Assembly (NCBI GenBank): GCA_943355005.1
Contig: CALRDV010000002.1
Coordinates: forward strand, 64,397 to 128,396
DNA length: 64,000 bases
Direction of reading: 5' to 3'
Source: Patescibacteria group bacterium
GTDB taxonomy: Bacteria > Patescibacteriota > Microgenomatia > UBA1400 > MFAQ01
The notes under the pieces are model-generated. The model saw nothing but the letters and a program-made list of their open reading frames with translations. It ran no database searches and had not been told where the DNA came from. The stretch's first letter is position 1. Each line of letters begins with the position of its first letter. This document shows positions 15,505 through 55,508 of this stretch, one piece after another. Both the position numbers and the translations under genes were made by a program.

Positions 15505-15508
15505 TAAG

Positions 15509-15582
15509 TGGGTCGAGTAGGATTCGAACCTACGACATCGAAGGTATAAGCTTCGCGCTCTAACCAGCTGAGCTATCGACCC
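15509..15582 (-). tRNA. tRNA-Ile (anticodon UAU); no encoded CCA
   Basis: Minus-strand cloverleaf GGGTCGATAGCTCAGCTGGTTAGAGCGCGAAGCTTATACCTTCGATGTCGTAGGTTCGAATCCTACTCGACCCA. Anticodon stem CGAAG/CTTCG, loop CTTATAC. Confidence 0.8.
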
Positions 15583-29518: not shown

Positions 29519-29578
29519 GTCATTCCGGGCTTGAATCGGCCGCTGATACCCGAAGGGGTAAATCCATCTGGAATCTAT
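29519..29578. repeat. GTCATTCC-hairpin repeat copy (variant unit)
   Basis: gtcattccgggcttga... shares the GTCATTCC-stem-CTTGA head with the copies at 41858 and 55476. Confidence 0.6.
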
Positions 29579-40772: not shown

Positions 40773-41408
40773 TTATTTCCCTTCTAATAGCTGCTTAACT
40801 TTATCAACGACAAATGGAGAGCCAACTTGTTCCCCATTGACAAAAAACGTTGGTGTTCCGGAAAGCCTAAGCGAATCAGCAAGTCTTGCGTCTATCGAAA
40901 CAAAATCGGAAACCTCACTTGATTTTAACTTTTCCTTAAATATTTTTTCATCCAAACCGAGGCTCTTCGCGTAACCGGCAAATAGATCTTCGGGTTTGCT
41001 GGAGCCGGACCACTCTTCTTGTTTTTCAAACATCAAACTCATCATCTCCCATCCTTTTCCAAGAACTCTTCCTGCTTCTACCGCTTTTGCTGAAATAAGC
41101 GCATATTTATGAACATTCGCAGGCAAGGGATAATGCCTCATCACAATTTTTACCCCTGGCATATCAAAAAGCTCTTTAGTTGCAATCTCTGCCGCCTTAC
41201 AAGATGGACACTGAATGTCTGAGAACTTAACCACCGTTACCTTTGTTTCTCCATTTTCTTTTACAAACCTAGCCCCATCAGTCAAAATCTTTTCATCTAC
41301 CTTAAGCTCCCCACCCGGCCCGGACATTTTTGACAAGCCCCAAATTATAAGTAGCAGTAGGACTGCACTTCCTATCGTAACTTTTAGTATCAATTTCCAA
41401 TCATTCAT
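40773..41408 (-). CDS. DsbA-like thioredoxin-fold thiol:disulfide oxidoreductase
   Basis: N-terminal TM; CPSC active site; thioredoxin fold. Confidence 0.75.
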   Translation of the reverse strand: MNDWKLILKVTIGSAVLLLLIIWGLSKMSGPGGELKVDEKILTDGARFVKENGETKVTVVKFSDIQCPSCKAAEIATKELFDMPGVKIVMRHYPLPANVHKYALISAKAVEAGRVLGKGWEMMSLMFEKQEEWSGSSKPEDLFAGYAKSLGLDEKIFKEKLKSSEVSDFVSIDARLADSLRLSGTPTFFVNGEQVGSPFVVDKVKQLLEGK

Positions 41409-41416
41409 AGTTTTTT

Positions 41417-41586
41417 GTCATTTCGACCGAAGTGGAGAAATCCCCCTCCACCATTGTCATTCCCGACCTGATCGGGAATCTATATAAATAAATTCTAATT
41501 ACTTTGTCATTCTGACCGAGTACTCGAGTGGAGGAATCTCCCTCCACCGTCATTGCGAAGCACGTAGTGCTGTGGCAATCCAGGCT
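41417..41586. repeat. Array of four tandem GTCATT-initiated hairpin repeat units between dsbA and iscU
   Basis: Units start at 41417, 41456, 41506 and 41549, each beginning GTCATT and containing a perfect short hairpin (for example ATTCCCGA-CCTGA-TCGGGAAT). The last unit overlaps the iscU stop. Confidence 0.8.
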
Positions 41587-42025
41587 AGTCATTACTATCA
41601 AATATCTTCAATAATGCTCTGTACGCGAGTGTAGCACATTTCATTCTACCTGGATTTATCTCCCCACCCAAAAGATCTACAATACCTGCTTCTCCAAATT
41701 TTTCCAAATCATCTTTACTCATCCCCACCACTTTTTCGGAAAGCATGCTGGCGGAAGCAGTAGAAATTGCACATCCTACTCCTTGCCACTTCATCTCCAT
41801 AATTACCTTTTCGTCATTGCGAGGAACGGAGTGACGTGGCAATCCAGGCTCATTTTTGTCATTCCGGGCTTGACCCGGAATCCATCCGGAAAATTTCACC
41901 TGTATCCGAATCATATCCCCACACGATGCATTCGACTCATCCATACTCACATCGGCATCATCAAGCGTCCCGAAATTCCTGGGATTTTTATAATGATCAA
42001 TGATTGTATCTTTGTAATCACTCAT
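41585..42025 (-). CDS. iscU: Fe-S cluster scaffold protein IscU/SufU-like, carrying an in-frame insertion of about 27 aa encoded by a repeat element
   Basis: HYKNPRNFG, ASCGDMIRI, GVGCAISTASASM and RMKCATLA motifs are all present. The foreign segment SGWIPGQARNDKNEPGLPRHSVPRNDE falls between the first and second Cys regions. Confidence 0.8.
   Translation of the reverse strand: MSDYKDTIIDHYKNPRNFGTLDDADVSMDESNASCGDMIRIQVKFSGWIPGQARNDKNEPGLPRHSVPRNDEKVIMEMKWQGVGCAISTASASMLSEKVVGMSKDDLEKFGEAGIVDLLGGEINPGRMKCATLAYRALLKIFDSND
41813..41889. repeat. Two GTCATT hairpin repeat units inserted inside the iscU coding sequence
   Basis: gtcattgcgaggaacggagtgacgtggcaatccaggct (41813-41850) is about 84% identical to the intergenic unit at 41549-41586. 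gtcattccgggcttgacccggaatcc (41858-41883) matches the units at 55476 and 29519. Confidence 0.8.
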
Positions 42026-42026
42026 A

Positions 42027-42668
42027 TTATTTGATTATTTCCACTATCTTATCGCCTATATGTATTGCAGATCCACCAAGGTGACCGTTATTATTACCCT
42101 TTATTATAAGTTTATTATTCTTTATTATAAAACCAATTTCCCTGCCAACACCTCCAAATCCAAAATCAAGCGGATACATTCCAAGTTCTATTTTATCTAT
42201 TGATATTGGCTTATTACAGAGATATTCACTATTCACTCCAGCCCTTCTTGCAAATACTTCATCGCTTAGGTGTTCACCAAGAATATTCCTTTCTTCAATT
42301 TCAAGCATCTCCAACAACTCTTCAGCATCTTCTTTAGGAATATAAAAAATGTTATCTTTTACAAATTGAAATTTCCAATAACCATTTTTATCATTTTGAA
42401 CTCTAGCAACGCCATCATTTGTCTGAAAATAAATGGACCCTCTATCTGTTTTAAATACATGTTTGAACTTCGATTTTTCAGATATTAAAGTGTCTATTTC
42501 TTTTTGCATCTCCTCCTGTCTCAAATCTAGATTAACTTTATCATCAAGAGCTATGTGTTTTGCCAAAAACACTTTTTTTAATCTATCAGAAATTTCTTCA
42601 ATCTTGTATGCTTCTACCCCAATATCTTCTACCTCATTTTTTTCAACCGGTTTATCCATATTACGCAA
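42027..42668 (-). CDS. Hypothetical protein embedded in the suf operon
   Basis: 213 aa ORF between sufS and iscU, overlapping the sufS stop; no motif recognised. Confidence 0.4.
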   Translation of the reverse strand: MRNMDKPVEKNEVEDIGVEAYKIEEISDRLKKVFLAKHIALDDKVNLDLRQEEMQKEIDTLISEKSKFKHVFKTDRGSIYFQTNDGVARVQNDKNGYWKFQFVKDNIFYIPKEDAEELLEMLEIEERNILGEHLSDEVFARRAGVNSEYLCNKPISIDKIELGMYPLDFGFGGVGREIGFIIKNNKLIIKGNNNGHLGGSAIHIGDKIVEIIK

Positions 42669-43947
42669 ATACTTTTGGTACTTCTCTGATTTTCTCGATC
42701 AAGTAATCAATTTCGGCTTTAGTATTGTATACATAGAAAGTAGCACGGACCATAGCCGGTACTCCAAAGCCTGTTACCAGTGGCGCCGCGCAGTGTTGAC
42801 CGCTTCTAACCGCGATTCCAAAGTTATCTAAAATCTGAGCCGCATCATGTGGGTGAACTCCGACGACATTAAAAGCCAGAGCCCCACCCCTATCCTCCAC
42901 GTCTCTCGGACCATAAATTACCACCAAACCCTCTTTTTCCAAAACAGACATTTTTTCCAAAGCATATTTAATTAGCTCTTTCTCATGTTGTCTTACATCG
43001 TCCATTCCCAACTTCTCCAAATAGTCCACCGCTTCTCCCAGCCCAATAATCCCGGCGATGTCCGGTGTTCCGGCTTCAAATCTACTTGGCAAATCTGCCC
43101 ATGTCGATCCGGTAATTTTTACTTCACCAATCATGTCTCCCCCAAATAGAAACGGTCTCATCTTAGACAATATTTCTTTCTTTCCCCAAAGCACTCCCGT
43201 ACCCGTTGGACCCATCATCTTGTGTCCGGAAAAAGCTACAAAATCCGCTCCCAAAGTTTTTACATCCACCTTCATATGAGGCACCATCTGAGAAGCGTCC
43301 ACCAAAACCGTAACCTCGGGTGATTTTGATTTGATCGTTTTGATCATACCGGTCACATCAGGCAAAGTCCCCAAAACATTTGATGCTCCGGTGACAGCAA
43401 ACAGTTTTACTTTTTCATCCACCAACTTATCAAAACTGCCCAGCTTTACGTTAAGTCCGCTTTCTTCGAAGCTTTGCTCTTCAGCTCCGGATATTTTTAA
43501 TTTTCCTTCAGCATCTACGTCGATAATCCTCAGCTCAGCTCCGGTTTCTCGACAGAGTTCTTGCCAAGGTACCAGATTTGAATGGTGCTCCAGTTTACTG
43601 ACAAGCACGGCATCTCCCACCTTAACATTATCTTTACCCCAAGAATACATCACTAGATTCAAACTTTCACTGGCATTTCTGGTAAAAATTATTTCTTCAT
43701 TTCTAGCCCCAATGAACTCAGCCACTTTCCCTCTAGCTTCATCCACCAATCTCGTTGACTCTACAGAAAGCTCGTAAACCCCTCTGTGGATATTAGCATT
43801 GGTATTTCTATAAAAATCATCCATGGCTTTTATGACACTCTCGGGCTTTTGGCTCGTCGCCCCACTATCCAAGAAGACCAAATCATGACCATGAATTTTT
43901 CTCTTTAATATCGGAAAGTCTTTTCTTATTTCTTCAACATCAAACAT
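42661..43947 (-). CDS. sufS: Cysteine desulfurase SufS (class V aminotransferase)
   Basis: PLP-lysine motif FSGHKMMGPTGTGVL, catalytic Cys region RSGQHCAAP, length 428 aa. Confidence 0.85.
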   Translation of the reverse strand: MFDVEEIRKDFPILKRKIHGHDLVFLDSGATSQKPESVIKAMDDFYRNTNANIHRGVYELSVESTRLVDEARGKVAEFIGARNEEIIFTRNASESLNLVMYSWGKDNVKVGDAVLVSKLEHHSNLVPWQELCRETGAELRIIDVDAEGKLKISGAEEQSFEESGLNVKLGSFDKLVDEKVKLFAVTGASNVLGTLPDVTGMIKTIKSKSPEVTVLVDASQMVPHMKVDVKTLGADFVAFSGHKMMGPTGTGVLWGKKEILSKMRPFLFGGDMIGEVKITGSTWADLPSRFEAGTPDIAGIIGLGEAVDYLEKLGMDDVRQHEKELIKYALEKMSVLEKEGLVVIYGPRDVEDRGGALAFNVVGVHPHDAAQILDNFGIAVRSGQHCAAPLVTGFGVPAMVRATFYVYNTKAEIDYLIEKIREVPKVFA

Positions 43948-44461: not shown

Positions 44462-44495
44462 GTCATTCCCGACCTGATCGGGAATCTATATAAAT
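44462..44495. repeat. GTCATTCCCGACCTGATCGGGAATCTATATAAAT repeat copy between sufB and sufD
   Basis: Identical to the unit at 41456-41489. Confidence 0.85.
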
Positions 44496-55475: not shown

Positions 55476-55508
55476 GTCATTCCGGACTTGATCCGGAATC
55501 TATATAAT
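55476..55508. repeat. GTCATTCCGGACTTGATCCGGAATCTATATAAT repeat copy
   Basis: Same head, tail and hairpin architecture as 44462 and 41456, with compensatory stem changes (CCGGA/TCCGG). Confidence 0.8.

Follow-up and report, generated by a model that had tools for sequence, protein, structure and literature searches.

Hairpin repeats translated in-frame within sufU of a Patescibacteria group bacterium, at a β2-β3 turn that is probably refilled recurrently

The subject of this article is an extra segment of coding DNA inside sufU of a Patescibacteria group bacterium, found in a stretch of 64,000 nucleotides (assembly GCA_943355005.1, contig CALRDV010000002.1, positions 64,397 to 128,396) which we call the window. 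The window has a GC content of 40% and the majority of its genes lie on the minus strand. The suf operon that concerns us here has the order Rrf2, sufC, sufB, a short sufD, sufS, an open reading frame (ORF) of 213 aa, sufU and a DsbA-like gene, and it is syntenic in every relative fetched. The names of the homologs are those of Candidatus Collierbacteria (Microgenomates, candidate phyla radiation, CPR). The sufU ORF (41585-42025, minus strand) encodes 146 aa of a SufU-type Fe-S sulfur-transfer/scaffold protein, and it is this gene that carries the insert.

The window had earlier been interpreted from its letters only, and this sequence-only reading took the gene for iscU. We disagree with this identification. 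Our criteria for SufU were a score above the TIGR01994 cut-off, the presence of three Cys motifs, a third Cys that is not preceded by His, and location in a suf operon. TIGR01994 (SufU) is the best NCBIfam match of the protein, its score rises above the curated cut-off once the insert is removed, the three Cys motifs (CGD, GCAIS and KCATL) are all intact, and the gene lies in a suf operon, in which no second sufU was seen. Judged by its sequence, the gene is hence of the SufU type rather than IscU. The insert itself obscures this assignment: it breaks the Pfam NifU_N match to the ORF into two stretches, and the TIGR01994 score is 82.1 bits with the insert, below the cut-off of 92.5, and 98.6 bits if residues 46-72 are swapped in silico for Asp-Gly. 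Since the insert drops the score below the cut-off (82.1 vs 92.5 bits), automatic annotation can leave genes of this kind unnamed.

The same reading had noticed about 27 extra residues in an otherwise motif-complete ORF of the U type, and here we agree. In a codon view against orthologs the inserted segment corresponds to residues 46-72 of SufU (SGWIPGQARNDKNEPGLPRHSVPRNDE; 41810-41890, minus strand), the frame staying open. Uninserted orthologs are 117-121 aa long and have short loops, e.g. KKDGK or KMGNGM; the counterpart of the inserted region in these proteins is a 10-residue segment, such as KDGKKITDMK, between a conserved VK and a W. According to the codon alignments, the insert is composed of an A unit and a 45-nt B segment, which bears out the proposal that the extra residues are encoded by two repeat units. 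Both units are read on the plus strand, antisense to the gene. The B unit, CGTCATTGCGAGGAACGGAGTGACGTGGCAATCCAGGCT (41812-41850), has a CGTC tag, an outer stem ATTGC...GCAAT and the tail CCAGGCT. The A unit, GTCATTCCGGGCTTGACCCGGAATCCA (41858-41884), has a GTC tag, a perfect 8-bp stem (ATTCCGGG/CCCGGAAT), a 5-nt loop (CTTGA), a C and the tail CA. The 7-nt spacer CATTTTT (41851-41857, plus strand) separates the two and forms part of K-N on the gene strand, where the A unit reads W I P G Q A R N D and the B unit (E)PGLPRHSVPRND.

Both units have intergenic copies. The B unit in sufU is identical at 34 of 39 positions (87%) to the intergenic unit 41548-41586, and the A unit shares 80% identity over 30 nt with 41454-41483. 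The likeness of the first unit to an intergenic one was thus seen correctly from the sequence. Its location "120 nt downstream" of the gene was not: the B copy abuts the gene and overlaps its stop codon by 2 nt, whereas it is an A copy that lies ~105-130 nt downstream. Copies exist in relatives too, whose loci are given L numbers below; the 32-nt core of the B unit is identical to an intergenic sequence in L005 (2616-2647) and differs by 1 nt from L006 10469-10500.

The window contains nine units altogether (starting at 29519, 41417, 41456, 41506, 41549, 41813, 41858, 44462 and 55476), seven of them intergenic, and more copies are present in all related loci. All nine lie on the plus strand, antisense to flanking genes. 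Matches to the consensus patterns (four A-type, two B-type) compare with an expectation of 0.00 from 100 shuffles. Directly 3' of sufU there is an intergenic cluster of four units (41417-41586, plus strand) in the order C, A, C, B: a C unit at 41417-41452, an A unit at 41456-41482, a second C unit at 41506-41548, and the B unit at 41548-41586, the last 2 nt of which are within the sufU stop codon. A further A unit, identical to the 41456 copy, is located between sufD and sufB (44462-44486), and a variant, CCGGACTTGATCCGG, between two minus-strand genes (55476-55500). The remaining unit is A-like (GTCATTCC...GGAATC), lies between convergent genes (29519-29575) and contains a 43-nt filling, as if its loop had received an insertion; a similar filled unit occurs at L037 10383-10427. 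A scan of the whole window at Rfam gathering thresholds returned two tRNAs only, and no described RNA family for the units. The GC skew of the plus strand is -0.19 to -0.32 in 8-kb windows throughout the entire window, even at 23.5-29.5 kb, where genes lie on that strand. Since the plus strand is C-rich across the whole window, we take it to be the leading-strand template.

The A unit of sufU folds with -8.5 kcal/mol as DNA (z -3.7); its RNA, on the mRNA strand, folds with -14 kcal/mol, and the fold of the sufU B copy is weak. For an analysis of covariation we collected every GTCATTC-N13-17-GAATC in the window and the sufU loci, pairing not being required, which gave ten distinct sequences with nine different inner stems. 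Inner-stem positions pair at 3.4 of 4 with their own partner, compared with 1.98 of 4 with the partners of other units, and this excess indicates that the hairpin is maintained by compensatory change. The identity of a unit is set at the DNA level and not by selection on the protein: neither the hairpin nor the GTC tag nor the 3' C has been lost.

It was also suggested from the sequence that the insertion is in-frame in a tolerated surface loop, as described for Rickettsia, and that alignment with homologs and a structure model would be the way to check it. Both support the suggestion: uninserted orthologs place the insertion point at the β2-β3 turn, and an AlphaFold2 model of the window SufU, built with 40 homologs, places the insert in a low-confidence loop. 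The mean pLDDT of the model is 80.6 and falls to ~50 for residues ~47-70. Strands 37-46 and 74-83 flank the insert, with C35 before the first strand and C85 after the second, and Foldseek matches the model to solved IscU/SufU structures with TM about 0.6-0.7. The insert is thus predicted to be a loop at the tip of the β2-β3 hairpin, about ten strand residues away from the end that holds the Cys ligands. The SufS partner, reportedly, binds at that ligand end in the complex from B. subtilis. We note that the HMMER alignment to B. subtilis SufU was misaligned through the insert; the position given here comes from ortholog alignments and the model.

The site is by no means private to this genome. 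Our survey of the loop comprised 118 parsable close homolog clusters: 52 have a basal loop of 10-11 residues and 66 carry 2-25 extra residues at the β2-β3 turn. Assigned by peptide signature, the inserts of these 66 represent at least six repeat types. Most frequent is an 8-nt tandem array, (ACTCAARA)n, with 23 cases; A-type hairpins and B-type inserts account for ten each (plus two composites with B), the SPTS..LGAGD type for seven and the DPRIREDD type, whose DNA has a TGTC tag and forms a hairpin (stem 8 bp, loop 4 nt), for two; 12 are other inserts. Every relative's insert that was examined at the DNA level is a recognisable repeat, and no relative was found with the window's segment free of a repeat signature: relatives carry either nothing or other repeat inserts. 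The GTC-tagged inserts examined at the DNA level are all antisense to the gene, and their tags are translated in frame as GAC. The frame of sufU is uninterrupted across the loop in 39 of 39 related loci examined.

Independent assemblies and samples have A units at this very position (L001, L002, L009, L016, L018), and B units are found there in L004, L006, L011-L013 and L021. The 27-nt A unit is identical at 27 of 27 positions in the window, L009, L016 and L018, and the flanking coding sequences of these four A-bearing lineages share 70-80% nucleotide identity, with third positions at about 44-55%. In L056 another A variant is found at the same site; it is identical to the window copies at 41456 and 44462, has two compensatory changes in the stem, and encodes the non-conservatively different peptide WIPDQVGND. 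As a proxy for the host tree we used a neighbour-joining tree of SufS. This tree and the backbone identities of sufU agree with each other, and the contents of the loop fit neither. The nearest relative of the window, L010, is 89-92% identical in the nucleotides of the backbone, and has the 8-mer array where the window has A+B. Of the other loci with an A unit, L009 has L011 (B) as its closest neighbour, L018 falls closest to genes with 8-mer or B inserts, and L016 lies within an otherwise uninserted clade, to which its backbone belongs. Loop contents are swapped between close relatives, and the turnover of what this site contains is fast. We considered import of a larger foreign segment together with the A unit, and rejected it: the N-terminal and C-terminal parts of the backbone both group with their own clade, and only the loop differs.

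The spacer between sufU and the DsbA-like gene (window 41385-41640; also in L001, L003-L006 and L008) is a second site with turnover. It holds GTC-tagged units in every relative, their type and number vary among relatives, and the copies in L003 are decayed. Other intragenic copies in relatives gave six candidates, all of which appeared to be spurious or antisense ORFs or to lie upstream of the real start. In the ~0.5 Mb covered, sufU is the only place with a convincing translated repeat. An apparent SufU-DsbA fusion in L027 and L031 was rejected, as a TAA stop is present.

Outside the relatives, the exact 25-mer of the sufU A unit, GTCATTCCGGGCTTGACCCGGAATC, occurs in more than 120 metagenome contigs among the matches listed (loci L059-L178), with GC contents of 33-66%. 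These listed matches all lie outside sufU, and the majority end in the tail CCAG. In many of them a second unit in inverted orientation (CTGGATTCCCGC...) follows after 10-15 nt, and identity of the 25-mer across genomes so different in GC is striking in itself. In three of the listed contigs, L146, L167 and L121, an ORF with a GIY-YIG domain (Pfam PF01541, E 1e-12 to 1e-16) lies within ~400 nt of the 25-mer, and L146 and L167 have units on both sides of this ORF. The layout in L146 (594-1506; a Ga0265297-type metagenome contig, GC 0.40) is that of a textbook NTS-ssnA-NTS-like arrangement: the GIY-YIG ORF (907-1221, 95-105 aa) is flanked within 1.6 kb by twelve hairpin units, in which GTCATTCC..GGAATC alternates with GTCATTCTGA..TCAGAATC.

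The last comparison refers to a recent finding in Neisseria. The NTS is the dRS3 repeat extended to 28 nt, CGTCATTCCCGCGMAVGCGGGAATCYRG (Chenal et al. 2025, Nat Commun 16:2388; PMC11893778). SsnA, a GIY-YIG protein of 94 aa, binds it as single-stranded DNA (ssDNA) and on one strand only; the three bases that lie upstream of the NTS palindrome are critical for cleavage and the C that follows it for binding, and genes for nucleases of this kind number in the thousands across phyla, with related hairpins flanking them (PMC11893778).

In our opinion the best explanation overall, to which we would give a probability of about 0.8, is that hairpin repeats lie in-frame in sufU at a β2-β3 turn which is recurrently refilled. 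Two repeat units of one kind, with a (C/T)GTC tag, a stem starting with AT, a short loop, a C and a CCA-like tail, would have become coding sequence of sufU through its antisense strand, at the codons of the turn. The ribosome would simply read through both units, as neither has a stop in the frame that is used and the number of nucleotides added is divisible by three. Translational bypass or splicing of the insert was considered too and rejected as unnecessary, since all sufU frames examined are stop-free and remain a multiple of three across the loop. SufU would thereby gain a disordered loop of 27 residues at the end opposite to the Cys ligands; the inserted protein most likely still works, and the insert is presumably neutral for its function. 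The turn, like the sufU-dsbA spacer, would be a recurrent nest, which in relatives is either empty or occupied by other variants and families, with orientation and register unchanged. The recurrence may reflect the local density of units and a targeting of positions beside GTC tags already present, together with selection for the one permissive coding site; GTCATT alone is an insufficient target, because most GTCATT sites on the plus strand of the window have no unit. Spread or maintenance may involve a single-strand nuclease of the GIY-YIG, Ssn type acting on ssDNA. Were this the case, the cleavable strand would be the one least exposed as ssDNA during replication, and one would have to think of avoidance, rather than of lagging-template targeting like that of IS200/IS605.

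Several observations weigh against this explanation, in whole or in part. The A+B allele is on record from this assembly only, in two records that possibly represent one contig. The A unit brings a net gain of 30 nt, compared with a core of 27 nt. There is no target-site duplication in the flanks of the A unit (four lineages) or of the B unit relative to L009, and no clean pair of an empty and a filled allele was found among the relatives' loci. As for the nuclease, the 64-kb window and the ~12-kb sufU loci L001-L058 were searched with a motif regular expression and by phmmer with two GIY-YIG queries against all six-frame ORFs, and yielded no GIY-YIG/Ssn gene (the single-domain type, cd10448); the Ssn link in this genome is consequently a resemblance of sequence. 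A search of databases with the GIY-YIG profile gave at least 8000 matches, the named best ones in Betaproteobacteria, and is uninformative on Collierbacteria. Finally, the published search pattern for Ssn-related motifs (SRM), HGTCWYN(0-2)YYVSBRHN(0-5)WNVSBRGN(0-2)RNCYNB, has no match in the window and matches 0 of 7 units. This pattern was made by hand from 29 genomes and expects a stem of nine positions, one of which the A units miss. Because of this mismatch we file the units under CGTC-tagged repeats, and speak of strong resemblance to Ssn targets, not of membership.

The history of the site could also be simpler than repeated insertion. One ancient insertion may have been followed by changes at the site itself, the present diversity being due to gene conversion from other copies in the genome, to nested additions and to precise deletions. 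Such a history does not contradict the best explanation, of which it is a variant, and we regard it as a serious possibility, if somewhat short of an even chance. It would account for the common orientation and register of the GTC-tagged inserts, with the tag always an in-frame GAC, even though other stop-free frames of the 25-mer are usable (all four occur in long ORFs elsewhere). It would also account for the 'LVI/xVI' pattern in the following strand, which inserted alleles have in common and uninserted ones lack, and the composites K8+B and A+B suggest additions beside existing units. On the contrary, the A unit of L016 in an otherwise uninserted clade argues for an independent gain, and the empty L019 and L020, nested among filled loci, would require precise deletions. 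One may go in the opposite direction and suppose that the sufU turn and the sufU-dsbA spacer are a true site-specific landing place, where insertion or exchange guided by a single-strand nuclease, possibly of the Ssn type, puts the GTC tag at one fixed nucleotide. We consider this rather unlikely. If it were true, the empty, single, double and swapped alleles of Collierbacteria would be a natural record of how CGTC/SRM repeats move and by which rule they choose a target.

It is also conceivable that the hairpins are kept because they do something: as mRNA or ssDNA structures that tune the expression or stability of suf, as sites for cleavage of the Ssn type, by which recombination tracts would be limited when DNA is taken up, or as a new interaction surface of SufU. 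The A unit is perfect at synonymous sites in four lineages and forms a stable RNA hairpin (-14 kcal/mol), units occur at several suf operon junctions in every relative, and in Neisseria certain genes have NTS repeats clustered around them, and these repeats modulate transformation (PMC11893778). However, what fills the site is not conserved, since close relatives have unrelated inserts or none, the peptides differ non-conservatively, and the B copy in sufU folds weakly. The synonymous identity is explained equally well by recent copies of a widespread master, given the >120 unrelated contigs with the 25-mer among the matches listed. We find such a function improbable. Recent inactivation of the gene, which the sequence-only reading had kept as its own alternative, or an artefact of assembly, is in our opinion very improbable. 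The restriction of the A+B combination to this assembly, and a SufU HMM score below the curated cut-off, could be cited in favour. Yet the ORF is open with all motifs intact, the same position holds A units or B units in the loci listed above, the A unit persisted in lineages whose backbones are only 70-80% identical and diverged under obvious constraint, all 39 related frames are uninterrupted, and no second sufU is seen in the operon. Least of all do we believe that the extra segment is ancestral protein sequence, with a repeat likeness that is coincidental or derived from the gene; the chance of this is close to nil. Many homologs indeed have long loops, but 52 of 118 have the basal loop of 10-11 residues, the matches to the repeat pattern are far above chance, the 25-mer is present in contigs where none of the listed matches is in sufU, and loop contents are incongruent with phylogeny. 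The insert is translated repeat DNA, not a protein sequence that looks like a repeat.

A few further observations concern the neighbourhood. The (ACTCAARA) arrays, with 3-5 repeats, are found in related Collierbacteria in-frame in sufS and sufU and at other places (L003 8816-8847; L008 2193-2224; L004 9143-9174; L018 4095-4168 and 8755-8794; L037 6127-6158), and 25 of the 25 arrays found are on the sense strand of the suf region. Since three 8-mers make 24 nt, such an array never introduces a stop, and each frame is a permutation of TQELKNSR. L010 and L037, which are distant on the SufS tree, share 30 of 30 nt of the array in the sufU loop. SufS itself has a variable region (window 43420-43491, minus strand, roughly residues 153-176): L005 is without 24 residues that are present in the window, and L004, L006 and L008 have an extra 8-mer-encoded KTQKIKNSK segment. 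The 213-aa ORF between sufS and sufU (42027-42668, minus strand) overlaps sufS by 8 nt and has no Pfam match; it has counterparts in L001 (201 aa) and L008 (202 aa, with Pfam Hydrolase on record) and is absent from L003-L006. Far from the operon, at 15508-15582 on the minus strand, lies a tRNA-Ile gene with the anticodon TAT (UAU). This tRNA is uncommon in bacteria, where AUA is usually read by a CAU tRNA modified with lysidine.

What is novel in these findings, and what is not? In-frame palindromic repeats are already known, from Rickettsia and, as repetitive extragenic palindromes (REPs) with CGTC or GTAG tags, from several phyla, and so is the link between hairpins and Ssn (PMC10969869, PMC3733652, PMC11893778). 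The novelty lies in the host, as Patescibacteria are outside the coverage of PMC3733652 and PMC11893778, and in the use of one codon position of SufU as a nest of repeats across many species. The first point extends the host range: pan-bacterial GTC-tagged hairpins are present, down to an identical 25-mer, and translated in a streamlined CPR genome. Regarding the second, the repeated filling of one SufU codon position offers a rare comparative handle on how repeats arrive and depart. We know of no transposase or target rule for these repeats. For protein engineering, the β2-β3 turn of SufU is marked as a place that would tolerate up to ~25 extra residues.

The closest known relatives of the units are, in our opinion, the CGTC-tagged REPs, which are defined by an unpaired CGTC/TGTC (or CCTC) tag, a stem of 8-9 bp starting with A-T, a loop of 4-5 nt and a short tail, mostly CCA (Di Nocera, De Gregorio and Rocco 2013, PMC3733652). 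The tags of our units agree with this definition, being tGTC in A, cGTC in B (41812, 41548) and tGTC in C. So do the tails, as the sufU A unit ends GGAAT-CCA and the B copies GGCAAT-CCA; the window's intergenic A copies end CTA, not CCA. Stem and loop are matched cleanly by the A type only, with its 8-bp AT-start stem and a 5-nt loop that is the geometry of the CGTC-2 family. B and C begin ATTGC and ATTTC and have longer, interrupted two-part stems, outside the four described families. Taken together, the units fit the CGTC/TGTC-tagged REP superfamily. The distribution is alike as well: copies are multiple and dispersed, mostly intergenic, between co-directional or convergent genes and downstream of genes in operons, and CGTC-REPs too occur in-frame in ORFs, adding ~10-30 residues, sometimes at about the same site of orthologs (PMC3733652). 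The different REPs at about one site of Xanthomonas recB may be compared with the sufU loop, where recurrence at a single codon position with at least six repeat types exceeds what has been described. The units also differ in organisation: in the window and its close relatives they all share one strand, standing singly or in head-to-tail clusters, and inverted pairs were confined to L146 and the more distant L037 and L048. Head-to-head dimers predominate among CGTC-REPs, as a tendency and not a requirement (PMC3733652).

The analogy with Rickettsia proves to be closer than was proposed from the sequence, as the superfamily fitted by the A unit includes Rickettsia palindromic elements (RPEs), namely RPE-4 and RPE-6 of Rickettsia conorii, together with the dRS3 of Neisseria (BMC Genomics 14:522; PMC3733652). 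Elements of the RPE-1 type (Ogata et al. 2000) are in-frame in unrelated housekeeping genes, and their extra peptides were judged compatible with the fold (PMC10969869); palindromic repeats in-frame in a housekeeping gene are likewise what we see in sufU. RPE-1 is nevertheless another element, ~100-150 bp long, with its own conserved peptide and with sequence families specific to Rickettsia, whereas the sufU units have 27-45 nt, encode varying peptides (WIPGQARND vs WIPDQVGND) and have no sequence relation to RPE-1. Hence the sufU element appears to work like an RPE without being a member of RPE-1, RPE-4 and RPE-6 being the short CGTC type.

Comparison with the REP/RAYT system (REPINs) and with IS200/IS605 elements reveals further parallels: in both cases the hairpins are short and tagged, are clustered and asymmetric between strands, and have a small nuclease of their own as the proposed partner. 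The tag is GTC here and GTAG there, and no Y1 transposase is associated with our units. IS608 and ISDra2 prefer the lagging-strand template; the recognisable strand of our units, in contrast, is the C-rich one, the leading-strand template. With regard to NTS and Ssn, intragenic or translated copies and Patescibacteria are not mentioned in PMC11893778. The sequences themselves are very much alike: the A units of the window read (T)GTCATTCCCGA CCTGA TCGGGAATC(T/C), and the NTS reads CGTCATTCCCGCG..GCGGGAATC. All A units read GTC-ATTCC...GGAAT-C, and the GTC and the 3' C, which are invariant in the units of the window, are the determinants of SsnA, whose strand-specific recognition would fit the one-strand bias of the units described here.

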